From Oscillospiraceae bacterium (GTDB lineage Bacteria; Bacillota; Clostridia; Oscillospirales; Acutalibacteraceae), in assembly GCA_015066565.1 (NCBI GenBank), contig SVOB01000003.1, positions 2,291 through 66,290 on the forward strand: a stretch of DNA of 64,000 bases, in the 5' to 3' direction. Shown one piece after another: positions 2,666 through 57,030 of the stretch (its first letter is position 1; the number at the start of each line of letters is the position of its first letter). The notes beneath the pieces were generated by a model. The model did not search any database, was not told the origin of the DNA, and saw only the letters and a program-made list of their open reading frames with translations. A program made the position numbers and the translations under genes.

Positions 2666-5075
2666 ATACTCAATAGTTTTTAAGCTTCTGTGCGTTATTA
2701 TCAGCTTCGCAAGCTTTTTTGTTGCGCTGAAAATCGGCTTGACTGCGGCTTTTACTGCGATTTATATTAACAATGCCTATTCTCCAAACGGTACTTTTTC
2801 CGAGGCAAACGAAGCGGTGGACTGGACTGCAAACAACAGTTTTCTGAACGTTTTCAGCTCGGATGTCCGTTCGGTCAGGCAAGCGGTAATGTATGACACG
2901 GATGTCGCTCAAATGCGTAAACTGCTTGCCGATTCAAGACAAGATTATATTGATAAGGCGGTGGAAATTTCCGAGAGGCTCGCGAAAGAAAAAGCCGAGG
3001 ATGAGAAAAAATACAGAGAGCACGAAACTTCGACCGAGTATTACGGCGACGAAGACGGCGAATACTATGAAGATTATGAGACAACCTATGTTAATGACGG
3101 AGAGTATACCTTTGAAATGCCTGTGCAAATAGGTAACTCGTCATTCGCCGATATGCTGATTAGGGCGGGTGAAACCGAAGAAGAAATCGCCGCAGATTAT
3201 GATTCACACGTAAATAATTGGATAGATGCTGAGTTTACCTATAACCCATACAGAATTTCAGCGGAACTTAATTATTATGTAAGCTACGGGGAAAACGAGA
3301 GCAGCTCTGTCAAGGATTTCTCAGAAGAAAACGCCTATTCGGCAGATACTTATTTTATAGTCAAGGACGGCGTTCTTGAGTCGAAGGGCATTTCTCAGGA
3401 AGCAGTTGAATCGGTTTATAATGAAATCAAGGATTTAGCGGGCTTCAAAGGGCTTAAGCTCTATGTTTATCTCGATACGGGCAAGCTTTCGACAGTAACC
3501 GCAGAGGAAATTATAAACAGCGGAATAAAGGGTAAAGACCTTACCTATTCCGAGCTTTTCGATATGTTTAAACGCTCGCAGGGAGCATATAAAAACACGG
3601 CGAGAAGCTTTATCTTCGCCGCTGTGCTTCTTATTGTCAGTATCGCCTTTGCGCTCGTATACTTTGAGATAACAGGTAAGAAAAACAAGGATGAGCCTTC
3701 TAAGACGTTTATATATGACTTTGTTCCGTTTGAGCTTGGACTAACGGTTGTCGGGGCAATAATAACGGGCTTGGTGTTTGCAACGGCAGAAATACTTGAC
3801 GATACGGGCGCCAATGAAATAACAATAACAGCGGTCTATGCGGTTATGGCGGTTGCGGTATTAAGCTGGATTTGCCTGTTTATGTTCTGCGCTTCAAACG
3901 CAAGGTATTTCCGTTCGGATAAAAAGGCGAGAACACATTTTCTTATCTATTGGTTATTTTTAGGCGTTTGCAAGGTTGTTCTGGCGTTCTGGCACGGCAT
4001 AGTTTTTGTCGCAACAAAGCTCAGTAATGCCGTAAAAAGGATTTTCAGCGCGGTAGCGTATAAGCCGAAAAAGTTTAAAAGAAACGTTATTCTTCTCCTG
4101 ATACTTCTGGCGGTAATGAATATTGCGTTTTTAAGCATTATAGTTTCGGCTGGTGTTTACAGAGAGCCTGTATTATTTATTATATTCTTCTTCCCGTTGG
4201 TTGTTATTGACGGTTATGTTCTTTATAGAACATGCAGATATATCAGGTATCTTGACGAAATTATAGACGCAAGCTCAAGACACGAGGATATTTTAACCCC
4301 GCTTGAAAAGCTGGACAATTCGCTTCGTGTACTCGCGCTGAATATGAAATACTCTAACGCTCAGCTTCAGGCGGCGATAAACAAGGCTGTCAAGGATGAG
4401 CGTCTCAGAACGGAATTAATAACTAACGTTTCCCACGACCTCAAAACTCCGCTTACGTCAATTATTCTTTATGTCGATATGCTTTCAAAGTGCGATATAA
4501 ACGACGAAAAGGCGAAGGAATATATTGAGGTGCTTAACGAAAAGGGAAATAAGCTCAAAAAGCTAATCGACGATTTAATCGAGGCTTCAAAGGTCACCTC
4601 GGGTAATGTTACGGTGAACCCTACCAATATTAATCTTTCCGAGCTGTGTCTTCAGGCGACGGTTGACGCCCAAGCCGATTTTGAAAAGGCGGGGCTTGAG
4701 CTTGTTGTCAAGTCGGGAACAAAGCAAACTGCAGTCTATGCTGACGGAACAAAGACGAACAGGATTATCGAAAACCTGCTGTCAAATGCCCGTAAGTATT
4801 CTGCAAAAGGTTCAAGGGTATATGTGAGTGTTTATGAGAAAAACGGCAGAGGTGTTTTTGAAATTAAAAATGTTTCCGCCCAGCCGCTTGACATTACGCC
4901 CGACGAATTGACTGAGCGCTTTGTCAGGGGCGACAAATCCAGAAATCAGGAGGGCAACGGACTCGGGCTTTCAATAGCCAAGGAGCTTTGCACTCTTCAG
5001 AACGGAGAGCTTGAAATACAGATTGACGGCGATTTGTTTAAAGCGAGGGTTTGTCTTCCTCAAAGAAGCTCATAA
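2640..5075 (+). CDS. Sensor histidine kinase with large N-terminal sensor region and multi-TM block
   Basis: H-box SHDLKTPLTSI, N box NLLSNARKY, G box GNGLGLSIAKE. Overlaps the regulator gene by 26 nt; the TTG start is uncertain. Confidence 0.85.
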   Translation: MDTNVKRFKYSIVFKLLCVIISFASFFVALKIGLTAAFTAIYINNAYSPNGTFSEANEAVDWTANNSFLNVFSSDVRSVRQAVMYDTDVAQMRKLLADSRQDYIDKAVEISERLAKEKAEDEKKYREHETSTEYYGDEDGEYYEDYETTYVNDGEYTFEMPVQIGNSSFADMLIRAGETEEEIAADYDSHVNNWIDAEFTYNPYRISAELNYYVSYGENESSSVKDFSEENAYSADTYFIVKDGVLESKGISQEAVESVYNEIKDLAGFKGLKLYVYLDTGKLSTVTAEEIINSGIKGKDLTYSELFDMFKRSQGAYKNTARSFIFAAVLLIVSIAFALVYFEITGKKNKDEPSKTFIYDFVPFELGLTVVGAIITGLVFATAEILDDTGANEITITAVYAVMAVAVLSWICLFMFCASNARYFRSDKKARTHFLIYWLFLGVCKVVLAFWHGIVFVATKLSNAVKRIFSAVAYKPKKFKRNVILLLILLAVMNIAFLSIIVSAGVYREPVLFIIFFFPLVVIDGYVLYRTCRYIRYLDEIIDASSRHEDILTPLEKLDNSLRVLALNMKYSNAQLQAAINKAVKDERLRTELITNVSHDLKTPLTSIILYVDMLSKCDINDEKAKEYIEVLNEKGNKLKKLIDDLIEASKVTSGNVTVNPTNINLSELCLQATVDAQADFEKAGLELVVKSGTKQTAVYADGTKTNRIIENLLSNARKYSAKGSRVYVSVYEKNGRGVFEIKNVSAQPLDITPDELTERFVRGDKSRNQEGNGLGLSIAKELCTLQNGELEIQIDGDLFKARVCLPQRSS

Positions 5076-33335: not shown

Positions 33336-34157
33336 CTACATTGAGCAACCGCAGGAGGGATTGTTCGGCTCGCTTCTGTCAAGCTCTCTCTCGTTGGGAG
33401 GGAAGAACTCGTTAAGCGGAAAGTCGATTTTCCTGAAGGTTTCGCACGGGTCGTCAGTTTCGCAGGTACATTCCTTATCCGGAATACAGAAGTCGTAAGC
33501 GGGAATAAGCATCTGGACGTCACGCTCAAGCTGAATTATGGTGAAAAGACCGAGCGTTACGGCTACGGCTCTGTCAGCCTGAAGTGTGATTTCGCCGTCA
33601 AAGCAACGGCAGATTGAGCGGGGCAAAGCTCTGTTTGACGAGAAAAGATTATCGCAGCACTCGTTTCTTGAGCAGAGCTTGGCGTCAAGACAAATCGGGT
33701 CAACCGTCTGAACCTTGGCTCTCGGGTTATTTGAAATAACGGGCAGCTGCTCGTCAATTTCGTCGGCGGCGTATTCCGAAGAGAATACTCTTACGTCGCC
33801 CTCGCTTCCGTAGAGAATACATTTCTTTGAGTATGTTGAAAGACCGCTTACGGTCACGGGCGGCGCCATGGGCGAAGAAAATGCGTCAAGCGTAACCCTG
33901 AAGAAAAACGTTACGTCAACCGAATAACAACCCCTGTTAAACGGAACTCTTTCGACCTCAACAAAGGCGTTGAGAATTTCGCATCCTCTGCAACGGATGC
34001 TCGTTGCGTTGTTTATAATTCCCTGTGTGTTCTCGGTGAAATAGACTCTTAAATCGGCAAGACAGTCCTTATCGGCGCAGGAGTCATAGACTCTGTTGGT
34101 GTCAATACAGACCGCTTCGCGGATTTGTCTTTTACCGCAATTTTTGTTGTCGGGCAT
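33336..34157 (-). CDS. Cysteine-rich hypothetical protein (20 Cys in 273 aa)
   Basis: Long ORF with its own terminator; motifs VCIDTNRVYDSCADKDC, CC, CRC, CTC and C-terminal CGC. Family not recognised. Confidence 0.5.
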   Translation of the reverse strand: MPDNKNCGKRQIREAVCIDTNRVYDSCADKDCLADLRVYFTENTQGIINNATSIRCRGCEILNAFVEVERVPFNRGCYSVDVTFFFRVTLDAFSSPMAPPVTVSGLSTYSKKCILYGSEGDVRVFSSEYAADEIDEQLPVISNNPRAKVQTVDPICLDAKLCSRNECCDNLFSSNRALPRSICRCFDGEITLQADRAVAVTLGLFTIIQLERDVQMLIPAYDFCIPDKECTCETDDPCETFRKIDFPLNEFFPPNERELDRSEPNNPSCGCSM

Positions 34158-36044: not shown

Positions 36045-36176
36045 GCCTTCTCCTTGAGGAGAAGGTGGCGGCGAAGCCGACGGATGAGGTGTAGCCACGA
36101 AGTGGCGTTATAATATATATTCCACCTCATCAGTTTCGCCGCTTTGCTCCTCAACAGCTTCCCCTCAAGGGGAAGC
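36045..36176. mobile_element. MITE-like, protein-less relative of the DUF559 element (family B)
   Basis: 47-54 nt inverted arms. Each has a hairpin CCTTCTCC/GGAGAAGG or CTTCCCC/GGGGAAG, then a TGGCGGCG...GACGGATGAGGTG-type segment. They flank a 31-nt core. Imperfect flanking repeat AAAATAACCG / AAAAAACCG. Confidence 0.55.
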
Positions 36177-37855: not shown

Positions 37856-39148
37856 ATGTTCAGTCATTTTGAAAATATCGACCTGACCTTTCTTTTCGAT
37901 AAGGAGGGCTCGCTTTCGGGCTTCGTTTCAAAGGTGCTTGATTCGTCAAGAATTATAAGCGGCTACGGCGGTTTTTATCTTTATTCAAGCATAGGCGACC
38001 CGGAATTTGAAATCATTTCCGATATCGACGAGAAAAATAAGGAATTACAGCTCGCTTCAATGGAAACCCATATCTGCGGCGACAACGTATGGGAAATGGC
38101 GGTTGCAACCGACATTACCGACAAAAACGCCCATAAAATGAAAAGAAGTCTTGTTTTCCGCAACGCCGAAACGGGCGAGGGACTTGTTCCAATAGGGCTT
38201 CGGTTTTCGGACGTCGTTCCGTCGTTTCTTCCCGACGATATTATAAAAATGCAGGTTGTTGCGTTTGCGGAGTCAATTGACCTTTACAAAACCGAGGAAG
38301 ATTATTTTTCCGCCTGTGAAAAGGATGAAAACGGAAACGTTGTCGAGCCGGGCAACGGCGTGATTTTTCCGTCGGGACTTGTTCATAACCATACCCGTTC
38401 GGCCGAAACGGGCGACGGCTCAAATGATACGGCTGTTTCGGATTTGTATGTCGTTCTTCGCTCAAAAATCAAAAGGATTTCAAGGGGCGGAATGACTAAC
38501 TGGTGGAAAACCGACGACGAGCCCGAACAGAGCTTTCACACCTTTTATTCAGTCACTGTTGACACACTCTACGGCGAAATCGACATTATTGTCGGTGTAA
38601 GCCAGCTGACCGAGGAACAGAAGCCGCTTTTAAAGGAAGGCTCGGTTATTTATACGGTCTGTACCTTGAGCGGCGACGTAGTCCTCGACGAATTTGAAAA
38701 CGGCGCTTTATATAACGAGGAATGTGATTTAAGGCTTATCCGTCAGGGGCTTGTAAGCGGAGAAATTGACAGGACATTTGAGGCATTTGACGAAAACGCC
38801 TCGTTTGAATTTTCCTCCGAAAATATTGAGGCAAGCGGAAAAGCCGAAGCCTTTAAGGAACTGAAAAAATACTGTTCTTCAAAGGAGAGGTTTATTACGG
38901 CTCTCGCTTCGGCTTCGGTTGTTTTTGATGACGGAAGCGTCGATTATACAAGCACAAGGCGGTGCGTCGCCGTTTCCTACGGGAACGAAATCGCCGAGCA
39001 TCTGATTTTTATCGACACTGATGAAAAGGGAAAAATCGCCCGTCTGAAAATTGTTTCGGCTCTCGGTTATGAACTGAGAATTGACAAGCCTGAATACGAA
39101 TATGACGACGACCTCTACGGCGAGGACGGCTTCGGAGATATGAATTAA
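37856..39148 (+). CDS. Hypothetical acidic cytoplasmic protein
   Basis: 430-aa ORF preceded by GAGGAAAAAGCT; no recognisable motif. Confidence 0.45.
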   Translation: MFSHFENIDLTFLFDKEGSLSGFVSKVLDSSRIISGYGGFYLYSSIGDPEFEIISDIDEKNKELQLASMETHICGDNVWEMAVATDITDKNAHKMKRSLVFRNAETGEGLVPIGLRFSDVVPSFLPDDIIKMQVVAFAESIDLYKTEEDYFSACEKDENGNVVEPGNGVIFPSGLVHNHTRSAETGDGSNDTAVSDLYVVLRSKIKRISRGGMTNWWKTDDEPEQSFHTFYSVTVDTLYGEIDIIVGVSQLTEEQKPLLKEGSVIYTVCTLSGDVVLDEFENGALYNEECDLRLIRQGLVSGEIDRTFEAFDENASFEFSSENIEASGKAEAFKELKKYCSSKERFITALASASVVFDDGSVDYTSTRRCVAVSYGNEIAEHLIFIDTDEKGKIARLKIVSALGYELRIDKPEYEYDDDLYGEDGFGDMN

Positions 39149-39160
39149 AAAAACAGTAAG

Positions 39161-39604
39161 CCTCCCTTGTGTAAAGGGAGGTGCCGAGGAACGAGGCGGA
39201 GGGATTGTCAAATGGATAGGAAACACAATAAAAATCTTGTGGCATATGCAAGAGAACTGAGAAATAATATGACAAAAGAGGAAAGACATTTGTGGTATGA
39301 CTTTTTACGTGATTATCCTGTTCGTTTTTCCCGTCAAAAGATACTCGGTAAATATATAGTTGACTTTTATTCTGCATCGGCAAAAATAATCATTGAACTT
39401 GACGGCTCTCAGCATTATGGAGATATTGGAAAGGAATATGATGGCAGACGGGATAAGTATCTTGAGGAATACGGGATGAAAATTATTCGTATTCCAAATA
39501 ATGAAATAAACGAGAATTTTTACGGAGTTTGTGAATATTTGGACAATGAAATAAAACAATCCCTCAGTCAGCTGCGCTGACAGCTCCCTTTACACAAAGG
39601 AGCC
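39161..39604 (+). mobile_element. DUF559-endonuclease mini-element bounded by 47-nt inverted arms (family B)
   Basis: Arms 39161-39207 and 39557-39604 (outer 20/22, inner 9/9 identical as reverse complements). Flanking direct repeat AAAAAAACAG at 39147-56 and 39606-15. Confidence 0.6.
39212..39580 (+). CDS. DUF559 (Vsr-like) endonuclease-domain protein
   Basis: LRNNMTKEERHLW...VDFY...IIELDGSQH...D..RDKYLEEYGMKIIRIPNNEI. The ORF-track start 39167 lies inside the left arm. Confidence 0.8.
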   Translation: MDRKHNKNLVAYARELRNNMTKEERHLWYDFLRDYPVRFSRQKILGKYIVDFYSASAKIIIELDGSQHYGDIGKEYDGRRDKYLEEYGMKIIRIPNNEINENFYGVCEYLDNEIKQSLSQLR

Positions 39605-39636
39605 AAAAAAAACAGACCTTTGCAGGTCTGTTTTTT
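39605..39636. terminator. Bidirectional terminator
   Basis: AAAAAAAACAGACCT-ttg-CAGGTCTGTTTTTT. Confidence 0.85.
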
Positions 39637-39641
39637 AGTTA

Positions 39642-41105
39642 TCAGTTATCCGAAAGCTTATAGCCGTTTTTCATATTCTTGCTCGCTTCTTCAAGAACTC
39701 TTGTCAGGGTGAAGGAGGTCTGTTCCTTTGCCATTTTGCTGATTTCCTCGTTCGCCTTTTCGGTAAGCGACCAGTCGCCGCTTTCAGCCATCTTTTTGTC
39801 GTATTCGCGGATAATCGCTCTGCCCTTTGTCATAACGGCGTCCTCGTATCTTTCGATATGCTGAACGCAGTCGGAGTAGTTTTGGTCGGCGAGAGCGCCT
39901 ATAAGACGGCTGTTCCAGTAAAGATTTTCGGTTGAGGCTTCAAGACCGACGTTACTGAAATACTTCGGCGCCTTTGAAACCGCCGTGTAAAGCGGAACAA
40001 CGGGATTGAACGCCGTTGAGCCGAAGCACACCCATTCAATTCCCTTTAACGCTTCGGGGACGTCAGTTCTTATCTGACAGATTGACGAAACGCCCGTGCG
40101 GTTGATTCCGATTGAACGGTACATACCTCTTTTGCCCGTGTCCTTACTTGTATAGGGGTTGTATTCGGTACCCTGATAGTGACCTGAAATGAGGTATTTT
40201 ACATCTTCGACCGACACCTTCCTGTCGGGAACAAGACACCAGGGGATGTTGTCGCTCTCGGGAGTGAACTCGGCGTTTTCGCCGTCCCAGCGGTGCGAAT
40301 ACGGGGTTAAATATCTTCCCATAAACCAGGCTCTCGGGGTGTTGTAGATATGGTCCATATCGCTGTGCGAGCCGAAAATATCGCGGGGATTGAATTTACC
40401 GTTCTGATTTAAATCGAGGTTGTTTTCCTTAATGAATGTTTTTAAATCAGCCGAACAGAGATGGTTTTTCTTTTTGCCGAAAGCGTCGTCAAGGTCAAAG
40501 GAATCCATAGCGAACTGATTAGGCGCAAGAACAACCGCTTCGTCGGGAACTCTTTTAGCCATCCAGTGATGTCCGCCGATTGTTTCGAGCCACCAGACCT
40601 CGTTTTCGTCGTTGAAGGCTATTCCGTTTGATTCGTATGTACCGTATTTTTCAAGCAGCTCGGCAAGACGGAGAACGCCCTCCCTTGCGCTTTTTATATA
40701 GGGAAGAACGAGAACGACTATGTCCTCCTCGCCTATACCGCCGATAACGTCCTTTTCGCCGCGCTTGGTCGCTTTTTTATATTCAACCAGCGGGTCGGCG
40801 GCAAGAACTCTCGGGTTTGAGGTAATCGTTTCGGTTGCCGTCATGCCGACATTCGCTTCGTTAATGCCTGTTGCCGCCCAGATTCCCTTTGCGTCGTCAA
40901 CGCTCGGGCAGGAGGTGTATCTCATCGGGTTATCGGGCAGCTCGATTTCAACGTGAGAAATCTTGCTCTTATATTTTCTCGGCTGTTTTTCAGGCTCAAC
41001 AACAATGAGCTTTTTGACGTCAAAATGACCGTCGTCCGTTCTTGCAATCATTGTTGAATTGTCGTTTGTCGCTTTTTTACCTACTAAAACTGTTGTGCAG
41101 GGCAT
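39642..41105 (-). CDS. C69-family dipeptidase
   Basis: N-terminal nucleophile context MPCTTVLVGKKATNDNSTMIARTDD. Confidence 0.85.
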   Translation of the reverse strand: MPCTTVLVGKKATNDNSTMIARTDDGHFDVKKLIVVEPEKQPRKYKSKISHVEIELPDNPMRYTSCPSVDDAKGIWAATGINEANVGMTATETITSNPRVLAADPLVEYKKATKRGEKDVIGGIGEEDIVVLVLPYIKSAREGVLRLAELLEKYGTYESNGIAFNDENEVWWLETIGGHHWMAKRVPDEAVVLAPNQFAMDSFDLDDAFGKKKNHLCSADLKTFIKENNLDLNQNGKFNPRDIFGSHSDMDHIYNTPRAWFMGRYLTPYSHRWDGENAEFTPESDNIPWCLVPDRKVSVEDVKYLISGHYQGTEYNPYTSKDTGKRGMYRSIGINRTGVSSICQIRTDVPEALKGIEWVCFGSTAFNPVVPLYTAVSKAPKYFSNVGLEASTENLYWNSRLIGALADQNYSDCVQHIERYEDAVMTKGRAIIREYDKKMAESGDWSLTEKANEEISKMAKEQTSFTLTRVLEEASKNMKNGYKLSDN

Positions 41106-41273: not shown

Positions 41274-42638
41274 ATGAAACTTGCGGTTATCGGCGGCGGC
41301 GGAGTACGCTCTCTTTTTCTTGCAAAAAGTCTTGCTCAAAAATCGGAAGAGCTTGGAATTACTGCTCTCGCCTTTATGGATAACGACGAAACGAAGCTCA
41401 ATATTTACGGCAAAATGGCTAAGCACACGGCTTTGAAAATCAATCCGTCGCTTGAGTTCAACCTGACAACGGACGCAAAAGAAGCCGTGGAGGGCGCTTC
41501 ATACGTTATAACGACTATCCGTGAGGGCGGCGACGAAATGAGAGTCAGGGACGAAAGAATTGCCCTTTCTCTCGGAGTTCTCGGTCAGGAAACCACCGGT
41601 GCGGCGGGGCTTTCGTTCGCAATAAGAAGCGTAAATGTGCTCGCAGCTTACTGTGAGCTTATAAAAGAATATGCTCTTCCCGGTTGCAAGGTATTTAATT
41701 TCACTAATCCCGCAGGCGTAGTAAGCCAGACGCTTCGCGATATGGGTTACGATTTCACTTACGGAATCTGTGACGCGCCCTCGGGCATGCTTCACTCGTT
41801 CGCAAAGCTTTACAACGCCGAGGCAAACCGTATAAAAGGCGAGGTTTACGGGCTTAATCATCTCTCTTATTTTTCGTCAATAACTCTTGACGGAAAAGAG
41901 ATTATGCCCGAACTGATTGAAAATGACGAAGCATACGAAAAAACCGATATGCGCTATTTTGAAAAGGACCTTTTAAGAGAACGGGGCGGAGTTTTAAACG
42001 AATATCTCTATTATTTCTATTACAGGGAAAAGGCGCTTGCGAATATTCTTAAAGCCGAAAAAACCCGCGGCGAACAGATTTGCGAAATAAACAAATCCAT
42101 GACAGAGGAATTAAAGGGGATTGATATTGATAACGATTTCGATACCGCCCTGAAAATCTTTGAAAAGTGGTACGGAATAAGGGAAAACAACTATATGGCG
42201 AGCGAAACGGGCGTTAAGAGAACTGTTCCGTGGTCGTTCGATATTAATAAAAAGGATGACGGCGGGTATGCGGGCGTTGCGCTCAAATTCATTGAAATTG
42301 CAAAAAGCGGCAACCAAGACAGTATGATTCTCTGTGTGCCGAATAACGGCGCTATTCCCTCTTTAAAGGATACCGATGTGGTTGAAATAACCTGCGATAT
42401 AACAAAGGACGGCGCCGTTCCCCATAAATTTGAAGAGGTTGACGAAGAAAACCTTGAGCTTATCAGACGTGTTAAGATTTACGAGCGTCTCGCTTCAAAG
42501 GCTATCAGGGAAAAATCGGTTACTGTGGCAGTTGAGGCTTTAACTCTTCACCCGCTTGTAAATTCCTACTCGCTCGCAAAGGAACTGATAAAACAGTACC
42601 TTGAATTGAATAAGGATTACACAAAGGACTGGAAATAA
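41274..42638 (+). CDS. GH4 NAD-dependent 6-phospho-glucosidase family enzyme
   Basis: MKLAVIGGGGVRS Rossmann start, NFTNPAG, CDAPSG; ATG 41274 follows GGGGGAA. Confidence 0.85.
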   Translation: MKLAVIGGGGVRSLFLAKSLAQKSEELGITALAFMDNDETKLNIYGKMAKHTALKINPSLEFNLTTDAKEAVEGASYVITTIREGGDEMRVRDERIALSLGVLGQETTGAAGLSFAIRSVNVLAAYCELIKEYALPGCKVFNFTNPAGVVSQTLRDMGYDFTYGICDAPSGMLHSFAKLYNAEANRIKGEVYGLNHLSYFSSITLDGKEIMPELIENDEAYEKTDMRYFEKDLLRERGGVLNEYLYYFYYREKALANILKAEKTRGEQICEINKSMTEELKGIDIDNDFDTALKIFEKWYGIRENNYMASETGVKRTVPWSFDINKKDDGGYAGVALKFIEIAKSGNQDSMILCVPNNGAIPSLKDTDVVEITCDITKDGAVPHKFEEVDEENLELIRRVKIYERLASKAIREKSVTVAVEALTLHPLVNSYSLAKELIKQYLELNKDYTKDWK

Positions 42639-56737: not shown

Positions 56738-56754
56738 GGGGCAGAAGGACTTGA
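56738..56754 (-). repeat. 17-nt copy of the tRNA-Trp T-loop/acceptor 3' segment
   Basis: GGGGCAGAAGGACTTGA, identical to 57074-57090. Confidence 0.75.
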
Positions 56755-56788
56755 CAAAGAATTGTTTACACAATTCTTTGGGTGCTCG
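56747..56788 (+). repeat. Hairpin repeat, copy 1
   Basis: GGACTTGA-CAAAGAATTG-tttaca-CAATTCTTTG-GGTGCTCG; near-identical to 56891-56931. Confidence 0.8.
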
Positions 56789-56801
56789 TCGACCGAAACA
56801 G

Positions 56802-56851
56802 CCTCCCTTGTGCAAAGGGAGGTGGCAGCCGTCAGGCTGACGGAGGGATTG
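56802..56851 (+). repeat. Solo family B (DUF559-element) arm
   Basis: CCTCCCTTGTGCAAAGGGAGG-TGGCAGCCGTCAGGCTGACGG-AGGGATTG matches the arms at 39161-39207 and 39557-39604. Confidence 0.7.
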
Positions 56852-56890: not shown

Positions 56891-56931
56891 GGACTTGACA
56901 AAGAATTGTTTCACAATTCTTTGCGTGCTCG
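56891..56931 (+). repeat. Hairpin repeat, copy 2
   Basis: GGACTTGA-CAAAGAATTG-tttca-CAATTCTTTG-CGTGCTCG. Confidence 0.8.
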
Positions 56932-57030
56932 GCTTACGCCTTCGCACATTTGAGCTGAAAACAGTCCACCGAACTGTTTTCTTAACGCTCAAATCCTTCG
57001 GTTCAAGTCCTTCTTAATATTTCATACAAA

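Follow-up and report, generated by a model that had tools for sequence, protein, structure and literature searches.

A DUF559 gene between a stop codon and a terminator

The window analysed here, a stretch of 64,000 nucleotides from an Oscillospiraceae bacterium (contig SVOB01000003.1), holds a small DUF559 gene bracketed by two inverted arms and lodged between the stop codon of an upstream gene and a bidirectional terminator. On comparison with loci from other genomes, the arms are best described as copies of a dispersed repeat unit of two types, and not as terminal repeats private to the element, and the element itself as a heterotypic doublet of such units (type 1 forward, type 2 reverse) in which an open reading frame (ORF) replaces the spacer. 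The parts of the locus, in window positions, are the following.

37856–39148, + strand: upstream hypothetical gene of 430 amino acids (aa), from the ORF list; its TAA stop codon (39146–39148) overlaps the left direct-repeat copy
39147–39156, + strand: left direct-repeat copy AAAAAAACAG, 10 nt, corresponding to the former A-run and the first 3 nt of the terminator stem
39160–39207, + strand: left arm, a type 1 repeat unit with mirror covariation; predicted DNA fold of −10.2 kcal/mol (z −3.0) with the tail unpaired
39161–39168, 39169–39173 and 39174–39181: pyrimidine strand CCTCCCTT, loop GTGTA and purine strand AAGGGAGG of the left arm
39182, 39183–39197 and 39198–39207: linker T, hairpin B and mirror-repeat tail GGAGGGATTG of the left arm
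39212–39580, + strand: gene for a predicted nuclease of 122 aa, DUF559/YcjD-like, with the Vsr fold and of the PD-(D/E)XK type (Pfam DUF559)
39557–39604, − strand: right arm, a type 2 repeat unit; predicted DNA fold of −10.4 kcal/mol (z −3.45)
39603–39596, 39595–39591, 39590–39583 and 39582, − strand: pyrimidine strand GCTCCTTT, loop, purine strand AAGGGAGC and T of the right arm
39581–39567 and 39566–39557, − strand: hairpin B GTCAGCGCAGCTGAC and tail TGAGGGATTG of the right arm
39606–39615, + strand: right direct-repeat copy AAAAAAACAG, which runs on into the terminator stem
39607–39636: bidirectional intrinsic terminator AAAAAACAGACCT TTGC AGGTCTGTTTTTT, with 13-nt arms (100% complementary) and A and T runs on either side
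39642–41105, − strand: convergent downstream gene for a Peptidase_C69 family protein

A preliminary description of the locus had placed the ORF, the arms, the direct repeat and the terminator within 1 nt of these positions. The terminator, common to the side of the 430-aa gene and to the convergent peptidase gene, predates the insertion. Around the ORF, the inverted repeat extends over 39162–39208 and 39556–39602 (47 nt, 74% complementary). With up to one mismatch allowed, its outer hairpin CTCCCTTGTGTAAAGGGAG is present three times in the window, where 0.02 occurrences would be expected, and the inner motif GAGGGATTG matches at 9/9 positions between the left and right arms, as had been described; as a bare 10-mer, this motif is not significant on its own (four in the window against 2.95 expected). 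An exact copy of GGAGGGATTG at 33354–33363 has no hairpins and was discarded as a chance 10-mer match. What had been called a divergent 15-nt middle does diverge between the arms (GCC-GA-G[GAA]C-GA-GGC in the left, GTCAGC[GCA]GCTGAC in the right), but both sequences form a second, compensated hairpin, termed hairpin B.

The arms also contribute to the gene itself. The GGAGG of the left-arm tail, 8 nt ahead of the ATG, doubles as the Shine-Dalgarno sequence (ribosome-binding site) of the DUF559 ORF, while the right arm encodes its last seven codons (QSLSQLR) and the stop codon. No promoter-like site was found between the upstream 430-aa gene and the DUF559 ORF, and the latter is for this reason probably co-transcribed with the former and expressed by read-through.

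A dispersed repeat unit of two types

The repeat unit measures about 50 nt and comprises, on one strand, an 8-nt pyrimidine strand, a loop, an 8-nt purine strand, a T, the variable hairpin B, and a purine tail. Type 1 units have a C-G closing pair and the tail GGAGGG, and type 2 units a G-C closing pair and the tail TGAGGG. A regular-expression search returned 207 units in the window and the DUF559 loci compared with it (loci from other genomes are labelled with L-numbers, such as L019 or L085), and 139 units in 80 IMG/VR viral contigs, none of the latter near a DUF559 gene. Units are found solo, in tandem arrays (seven in L053), and as convergent doublets. Among approximately 28 convergent pairs, 25 are heterotypic, joining type 1 to type 2 with the tails inward and a spacer of 1–60 nt; some doublet spacer families are multi-copy within one contig. 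This range of settings, which includes ORF-less doublets and viral contigs, speaks against the earlier view of the arms as element-specific terminal repeats.

The window itself holds two further members of the repeat family, as had been proposed, although neither is a DUF559 element.

36045–36176: ORF-less inverted doublet of a different unit variant, with a 35-nt spacer between the units; left unit CCTTCTCC/GGAGAAGG with tail GGATGAGG, right unit (− strand) GCTTCCCC/GGGGAAGC with tail TGATGAGG
56801–56851, + strand: solo type 1 unit of the same variant as the DUF559 arms, GCCTCCCTTGTGCAAAGGGAGG T GGCAGCCGTCAGGCTGAC GGAGGGATTG; −14.7 kcal/mol, z −4.4

The doublet sits between convergent genes, just 5′ of another bidirectional terminator, and abuts its A-run. 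The solo unit, together with about 40 nt, is bracketed by a direct repeat of 43–44 bp (56747–56788 and 56891–56931) reading GGACTTGACAAAGAATTGTTT[A]CACAATTCTTTG[G/C]GTGCTCG, which holds a TTGACA box and a AAAGAATTGT/ACAATTCTTT palindrome. This could represent the duplication of a promoter/operator, or else a long duplication tied to the arrival of the unit. A different small repeat (…TTGAGCTGAAAACAGTCCACCGAACTGTTTTCTTAACGCTCAAATCC…) adjoins the solo unit at 56936–57000, and a sequence similar to it is nested in the right arm of the L023 DUF559 element (L023 about 3400–3500).

Many DUF559 homologues lie on contigs of 0.5–1.5 kb or no more than a few hundred bp from the end of a contig, and short-read metagenome assemblies appear to break at the units. 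Automatic gene calls also run on into the arms, as in the case of a 137-aa version with a TTG start at window 39167.

Mirror covariation and the triplex signature

The tail of the unit is the mirror image of the purine strand of its first hairpin (hairpin A) and covaries with it. At least 14 distinct purine-strand variants are found, among them the following pairs.

Purine strand AAGGGAGG, tail GGAGGGAT
Purine strand AGGGGAGG, tail GGAGGGGT
Purine strand GAGGGAGG, tail GGAGGGAG
Purine strand AAGGGAGC, tail TGAGGGAT
Purine strand AAGGGGGC, tail TGGGGGAT
Purine strand GGAGAAGG, tail GGATGAGG
Purine strand GGGGAGAG, tail GAGAGGGG
Purine strand AAGGAGGG, tail GGGAGGAT

With the position of the tail anchored independently of its sequence, mirror scores are bimodal, and 253 of 430 candidates are consistent at 7/8 positions or more; since the candidates count each hairpin on both strands, these 253 represent essentially all real units, which score 7–8 of 8. 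In type 2 units, a T stands opposite the closing C. The possibility that the tail is a direct repeat of the purine strand was rejected, because the asymmetric pairs (GGGGAGAG with GAGAGGGG, AAGGAGGG with GGGAGGAT, and GGAGAAGG with GGATGAGG) fit the mirror register only.

Hairpin B is represented by 242 distinct sequences, in which pairs 4–6 are 85–88% Watson-Crick and include all four pair types, against 29–32% with shuffled partners (counted with a strict filter, a relaxed one having admitted AT-rich false positives). Judged by this pairing, the middle described as divergent is kept by compensatory change. Its loops are mostly GAA, GCA, GTA or GNRA-like, and its second pair is kept as G.A or G.T in type 1 and as T-A in type 2. 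A distant relative, L258, lacks hairpin B and reads CCCCCCTT-TAGAA-AAGGGGGG-TGA-GGGGGGAT, that is, Y8-loop5-R8-TGA-R8, the textbook form.

The order of pyrimidine strand, loop, purine strand, linker and third strand is that of a class II intrastrand triplex (Holder et al. 2015, PMC4666352). In DNA folding predictions, the two hairpins form and the tail stays free, and both window arms, the solo unit and the doublet fit the class II order and its allowed triads. Mirror repeats of purines that set G against G, and A or T against A, follow the antiparallel purine-motif rule. At the level of sequence comparison, the mirror covariation is what marks an intrastrand DNA triplex of the class II purine-motif kind, like that of BoxC/TMECO in Escherichia coli. 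A single-stranded unit would thus be expected to fold into such a triplex, with G·G-C, A·A-T and T·A-T triads and with hairpin B as the second loop.

The structure is taken to exist at the level of DNA, because RNA is reported not to adopt purine-motif triplexes (Semerad & Maher 1994, cited in PMC4666352) and the two arms are opposed in the transcript. Rfam covariance models gave no match in the window and, in 12 related loci, only unrelated T-box, tRNA and signal recognition particle RNA matches; with the arms facing opposite ways in the transcript, this ruled out an RNA element.

The right arms of L003, L019 (3360–3470), L023, L189, L213 and L219 carry an extra 55–90 nt at the same point, between hairpin B (…GACAGC) and the stem of hairpin A (CCCTTTACAC…). 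These inserts contain pyrimidine/purine hairpins, which suggests that this point is a hotspot for the nested insertion of related small elements.

Insertion at the window site and long residence elsewhere

Orthologues of the upstream gene (68–75% identity) were traced in three other species (L085/86/87, L088 and L271). In all of them, the stop codon is directly followed by an A-run, a GC-rich hairpin and a T-run, with no unit, and in L085–87 the convergent C69 peptidase gene ends 30 nt away. Because these three related species have only a compact terminator at the orthologous site, the block formed by the DUF559 gene and its arms is a discrete insertion between the stop codon and the bidirectional terminator. 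Deletion of the block had been predicted to restore a stop codon, A-tract, hairpin and T-tract, which is what the empty sites show. There, the A-run directly adjoins the stop codon; in the window, the left copy of AAAAAAACAG takes this place and the right copy joins the terminator stem; since both copies sit where the empty-site architecture predicts, the 10-bp duplication proposed for 39147–39156 and 39606–39615 is genuine at the window copy.

As a trait of the family, however, the duplication proposed for copy boundaries does not extend beyond this copy. The longest direct repeats around 77 other DUF559 elements are distributed in length as in mismatched flank pairs, and the window copy is the only one of the 78 with a flanking direct repeat longer than 7 nt, so that a general target-site duplication of fixed length was ruled out. 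The flanks of the elements are usually AAA/GCC...GCC/TTT, which lengthens the inverted repeat. The suggested preference for terminator shoulders was found as an enrichment, although not at all copies: 14 of 75 elements have terminator-like sites in the 100 nt 3′ of the right arm, compared with 3 of 66 control positions. The window fits this pattern, as its DUF559 element and the doublet at 36045–36176 both abut a terminator A-run. A flank group sharing 'GCACCGCACCAAAGCC' was checked for a tRNA/rRNA-linked insertion site, which was rejected as no tRNA was found.

The DUF559 protein has exact matches on 12 contigs, and so does the 430-aa protein; the arrangement is the same at all places listed. 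The presence/absence polymorphism that had been envisaged was not observed, since neither a within-species empty site nor any polymorphism was found among the places listed for these 12 contigs. The idea of an invertible segment was likewise rejected, as the arms are heterotypic and the orientation is the same at all those places. DUF559 genes have been reported to be enriched among predicted targets of programmed inversion (PMC9881135), an enrichment that is probably due to these inverted repeats.

Evidence for mobility comes from elements with 91–94% nucleotide identity in different species with unrelated flanks, from copies at contig ends or on contigs of 0.5–1.5 kb, and from the presence of the DUF559 gene in different operon gaps of two Deinococcus strains. 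Several metagenome-assembled genomes (MAGs) have more than one DUF559 copy (L022/L046 and L051/L069, and two each in L019, L021 and L045). On the other hand, a syntenic copy is present in 13 species (L035, L037, L039, L042, L050, L054, L059, L061, L064, L069, L070, L078 and L079), which share approximately 145 bp upstream with a TTGACT-17-TAATAT promoter and approximately 200 bp downstream with a terminator. Among these species, the element is 90–96% identical, above the non-coding flanks (76–94%). Many copies thus look like long-resident, expressed and vertically kept genes rather than active transposons.

Linkage between the gene and its arms

The comparison covered 80 loci with DUF559 relatives of 65–78% aa identity from many Oscillospirales species, and in about 76 of them the gene is flanked by the same arms. 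The left arm reads GCCTCCCTTGTGTAAAGGGAGG-T-[hairpin]-GGAGGGATTG, with the ATG a few nucleotides on, and the right arm CAATCCCTCAG-[hairpin]-AGCTCCCTTTACACAAGGGAGCC. In the 52 gapless ORFs, nucleotide identity averages 70%, falling to 49% when third codon positions are taken alone; an exact hairpin A (21 nt) is present in 39–42 of the 52 elements and exact tails in 44–50. The ratio of nonsynonymous to synonymous substitution rates of the ORF is about 0.10. By these values, conservation of the arms far exceeds that of the ORF, and both the protein and the arms are under purifying selection.

The arm variant also changes with the protein. In L019, a second DUF559 copy (52% identity to the window protein) is bordered on both sides by arms of a different variant (stem CTCCCTC, loop TGAC and tail GGAGGGAGAGA). 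Its relatives of 70–89% identity, referred to as subfamily 2, have CCTCCCTC...GGAGGGAGAGA arms on both sides, and among its eighty metagenomic relatives the same variant is present whenever identity is about 70% or above. More distant subfamilies have further variants (CCCCCCTT/GGGGGGATA and CTCTCC/GGAGAGGTTG), and some revert to the window variant. This matching between subfamily and variant fits a specific recognition between each nuclease subfamily and its units.

The DUF559 nuclease

Homologue searches retrieved at least 8000 cluster representatives of DUF559, which is, to our knowledge, a very large family without an assigned function. The assignment of the window protein to DUF559 made in the preliminary description was confirmed by family hidden Markov models (PF04480, E 1e-29, 103 bits against a cutoff of 20.6, residues 8–111); the NCBIfam model for YcjD, NF007294, matches with E 2.8e-21 over 7–112/117, below its equivalog cutoff. 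D51, E62, D64, Q67 and H68 are invariant in 36 homologues and form a D...E-x-D-x3-H motif. By sequence, the closest solved structure is NGO0050 (PDB 3HRL, E 2.4e-10). The AlphaFold (AF2) model of the 122-aa protein has a predicted local distance difference test (pLDDT) score of 80, and its top Foldseek matches are the catalytic domain of I-Bth0305I (3R3P), NGO0050 (3HRL) and Vsr (1CW0, 1VSR), with identities of 14–19%; the nuclease domains of PvuRts1I/AbaSI and the R2 restriction-like endonuclease are also matched. The protein is thus very probably, as predicted from these models, an active Vsr-fold nuclease or nickase under purifying selection.

The DUF559 gene is the only ORF of the element, with no recognised DDE, HUH, serine or tyrosine recombinase, and family model searches with the protein gave no match to Y1_Tnp (HUH/Y1 transposase).

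The E. coli ycjD gene and other phyla

BoxC/TMECO repeats are present in 23 copies in E. coli K-12, as types A and B that always combine as A+B in inverted doublets. They form a triplex in vitro, as determined by circular dichroism and nuclear magnetic resonance, and are associated with unstable loci, while no mobility enzyme, origin or partner protein is known for them (PMC4666352). This strain has a DUF559 gene, ycjD (L259, NC_000913.3 1351040–1351830). On the 3′ side of ycjD, 168 nt beyond the stop codon, is TMECO no. 9 (1351239–1351204; Holder et al., PMC4666352, Table 1). The chance of a TMECO that near a given gene is estimated at approximately 0.002–0.004, with 23 TMECOs in 4.6 Mb. The C-terminus of YcjD is encoded by a degenerate BoxC-like sequence, CACCCTCTCCCTGA, and a 45-nt duplicate of the 3′ end of ycjD lies between the gene and TMECO no. 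9. A hairpin with a 16-bp stem (CACCTCATTCTGACAA…TTGTCAGAATGAGGTG) covers the GTG start of ycjD. The gene is polymorphic within the species: 3346 of 5426 complete E. coli genomes have it in the sapF-fabI gap, and the others have eefRABCD in its place (PMC12817139).

DUF559 genes on large replicons from other phyla also have triplex motifs beside them. In the following lines, the expected number is that of motifs within 250 bp of the gene under a uniform motif density in the region scanned.

Deinococcus psychrotolerans: 3 motifs in 49 kb, 2 beside the DUF559 gene (both flanks), 0.05 expected
Deinococcus sp. NW-56: 3 motifs in 49 kb, 1 beside the DUF559 gene, 0.05 expected
Sphingomonas parapaucimobilis: 12 motifs in 49 kb, 7 beside the DUF559 gene, 0.21 expected
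Synechocystis sp. B12 plasmid: 6 motifs in 49 kb, 2 beside the DUF559 gene, 0.12 expected
E. coli K-12: 1 motif in 8 kb, 1 beside ycjD, 0.11 expected

The joint chance of these five loci is of the order of 1e-5 or less, and the pairing of DUF559 with triplex repeats recurs in five phyla. Some Sphingomonas units have the same hairpin B design (GG-T-GGCAGGCCGAAGGCCTGAC-GGAGGGG), and the two-hairpin unit is thus not confined to Firmicutes, being present in an alphaproteobacterium. In the same S. parapaucimobilis locus (L267), an inverted unit pair with a window-type hairpin B (…GGGGAGGT GGCAGGCCGAAGGCCTGA CGGAGGGG) lies at 41900 (+) and 42026 (−), 17 kb from the DUF559 gene. On the Deinococcus plasmids L266 (24380–24810) and L269 (23987–24380), the motif-flanked DUF559 genes occupy the paaD-paaZ and hpaE-oxidoreductase gaps, respectively, and the hpaE gap is empty in the first strain (L266).

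In a literature search of incomplete coverage, no paper was found that links DUF559 or YcjD to BoxC or triplex repeats, or that describes DUF559 as the mobility enzyme of such an element, in line with what had been said in the preliminary description.

A proposed repeat-associated nuclease module

In the interpretation that we prefer, and to which we give about half of our confidence, the locus is a REPIN/RAYT-like module: a DUF559/YcjD-like nuclease gene embedded in a heterotypic inverted pair of BoxC-like, triplex-capable units. The nuclease would recognise and nick its cognate units, either folded or duplex, and nicking would drive the spread of units as solo copies and doublets, as RAYT transposases (REP-associated tyrosine transposases) are presumed to do with REP (repetitive extragenic palindromic) sequences and REPINs. 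The gene would occasionally be carried along because it lies inside a doublet. At the window site, the whole module was inserted between stop codon and terminator with a 10-bp duplication, and is probably expressed by read-through.

Several points weigh against this module. Triplex formation by the units is deduced from covariation, and the action of the nuclease on its units, which we hold to be evenly balanced, is likewise inferred, as is its role as a mobility enzyme. Units are abundant in viral contigs without DUF559, and their spread there would need action in trans or another enzyme. Multi-copy DUF559 genes in several MAGs are unlike the single-copy RAYTs, and the presence of the 10-bp duplication at the window copy only leaves no consistent signature of transposition. 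The co-divergence of arms and ORF could also reflect the common descent of one replicating block. Unit tails point inward in Oscillospirales and outward from the gene in Deinococcus, and the only intact BoxC near ycjD lies 168 nt off and in the same orientation as the gene; this variation of orientation between phyla weakens any single mechanistic picture.

Relation to known repeat systems

BoxC/PIT/TMECO repeats are the closest known relatives of the units in design. They have the same class II purine-motif strand order, are intergenic and dispersed, form heterotypic inverted doublets, and have no known transposase (Holder et al. 2015, PMC4666352, and, as cited there, Hoyne et al. 2000); moreover, one of them, TMECO no. 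9, adjoins the E. coli DUF559 gene. They differ in sequence and stem length, CCTCCCTT/AAGGGAGG/GGAGGGAT with stems of 8 nt here against CCCTCNCCC/GGGNGAGGG with stems of 9 nt in TMECO, and in the second loop, which is of 3 nt there and a covarying hairpin B of 13–26 nt here. The window units deviate from the TMECO consensus, CCCTCNCCC N3-6 GGGNGAGGG N3 GGGNGAGGG with loops of 1–6 nt, and an ITxF search (loops of up to 6 nt) would miss window-type units because their second loop is a hairpin of 13–26 nt. In addition, the hosts here are Oscillospirales (Firmicutes), a group that is not mentioned in PMC4666352, and the units systematically bracket a nuclease gene, whereas that study makes no mention of ycjD or DUF.

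The REPIN-RAYT system shares with the module short, structured, intergenic repeats, often near the 3′ ends of genes, and their arrangement as inverted doublets with a spacer (Bertels & Rainey 2011, PMC3116915; PMC3337134), as well as an enzyme gene flanked by inverted repeats, subfamilies that match repeat variants, and signs of a long vertical residence. Unlike RAYTs, the enzyme here is a Vsr-fold PD-(D/E)XK protein and not an HUH/Y1 transposase, and the units are triplex-capable and two-hairpinned instead of simple REP palindromes with a GTAG/CGTC tag. The DUF559 gene is often multi-copy in a genome, and the whole module has moved at least once, in the window. As to the single-copy, vertical inheritance of RAYT genes, the 13-species syntenic group suggests vertical descent here too, yet several MAGs have at least two copies and the window copy is a new insertion.

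EDxHD or Vsr-like homing endonucleases (I-Bth0305I, 3R3P) and the mismatch nickase Vsr (1CW0, 1VSR) have in common with the DUF559 protein the catalytic fold, the acidic/His motif, and the character of small site- or distortion-specific nucleases. However, the DUF559 gene lies outside any intron or intein, has no adjoining cytosine methyltransferase, and its product has no extra DNA-binding domain. Miniature inverted-repeat transposable elements (MITEs) and their parent insertion sequences (ISs), as well as IS200/IS605 elements with their palindrome-associated derivatives, also have ORF-bearing and ORF-less versions with shared structured ends, of which the ORF-less are commoner, and lie near hairpins and terminators. 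In contrast to them, the present family has no recognised transposase and no consistent target-site duplication, and its heterotypic ends also occur singly and in arrays.

Alternative explanations

An unlikely but substantial alternative is that DUF559 represents a free-standing homing endonuclease gene that parasitises doublets, cutting ORF-less doublets at or near the tail-to-tail junction and being copied in by repair, while the units spread by other means. The best structural match, the catalytic domain of the homing endonuclease I-Bth0305I, would be in keeping with this role, and the ORF sits exactly where ORF-less doublets have their spacers of 1–60 nt. Its multi-copy state in some MAGs, its positions at contig ends or on very short contigs (as for an assembly-breaking repeat), and the 91–94% identical elements with unrelated flanks in different species would also be accounted for, and the matching of subfamily and variant is expected of any target-specific enzyme. 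However, the empty sites in relatives are devoid of any doublet, so that a prior, unseen doublet insertion would be needed; the 13-species syntenic copy, with its own promoter and terminator, looks long vertically resident; the Deinococcus units face the other way relative to the gene; and the mobility of the units is left unexplained.

It is improbable that DUF559 is instead a host caretaker or passenger, that is, a Vsr-like repair or structure-processing nickase, or a defence nuclease, trapped in and regulated by the repeats. Strong purifying selection and syntenic copies with their own promoter would suit such a protein, as would the use of the arms for its expression, the left tail providing the GGAGG ahead of the ATG and the right arm the stop codon and, at many loci, a hairpin and T-run. 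The G.A or G.T mismatch in the second pair of type 1 hairpin B is a plausible Vsr-type substrate, and TMECO motifs cause polymerases to stall and are linked to unstable genomes (PMC4666352). A defence role has weak PADLOC matches to DpdF and a methyl-directed restriction endonuclease in its favour, but these are marginal (E 1e-6 and 1e-4, respectively) and cover the shared nuclease core only. A caretaker would explain neither why, across phyla, almost all copies of the gene lie precisely between two inverted units nor why the whole block moved to a new site in the window.

The original reading as an autonomous transposon bounded by terminal inverted repeats (TIRs), with the arms as TIRs, DUF559 as the transposase, a 10-bp duplication and a preference for terminator shoulders, is quite improbable: the perfect 10-nt duplication and restorable terminator of the window copy, the empty sites in relatives, the terminator-like sites 3′ of the right arm (14/75 against 3/66 controls) and the doublet at 36045–36176 abutting a terminator A-run speak for it, but the flanking direct repeats of the 77 other elements are no longer than those of mismatched flank pairs, and the arms, heterotypic and highly structured, are not simple TIRs and are far commoner without the gene (as solo units and tandem arrays) than private TIRs would be. 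Furthermore, we know of no PD-(D/E)XK protein of this size that carries out complete transposition alone; TnsA works only together with TnsB. The DUF559 module is not a simple TIR transposon with a fixed duplication.

Implications for DUF559 and triplex repeats

As far as we know, the covariation of the mirror repeats is unusually clean comparative evidence for in vivo selection on a non-B DNA structure. At a practical level, the units appear to break metagenome assemblies, and they make predicted proteins of gut Clostridia spuriously longer at the N- and C-termini.

BoxC/PIT/TMECO repeats have been known in E. coli since the 1990s, and their pairing with DUF559 gives each of the two a testable function; with both YcjD and BoxC present in E. 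coli K-12, the pairing can be tested in a model organism. A wider proposal, which we put forward tentatively, is that YcjD-like DUF559 nucleases may be the missing partner enzymes of BoxC/PIT/TM triplex repeats across bacteria, as triplex-recognising, structure-specific nucleases that mobilise REPIN-like doublets. If true, this would be a second symbiosis between a repeat and a domesticated nuclease beside REP/RAYT, mechanistically unrelated to it, and DUF559 would be the first enzyme family with a DNA triple helix as its natural substrate.

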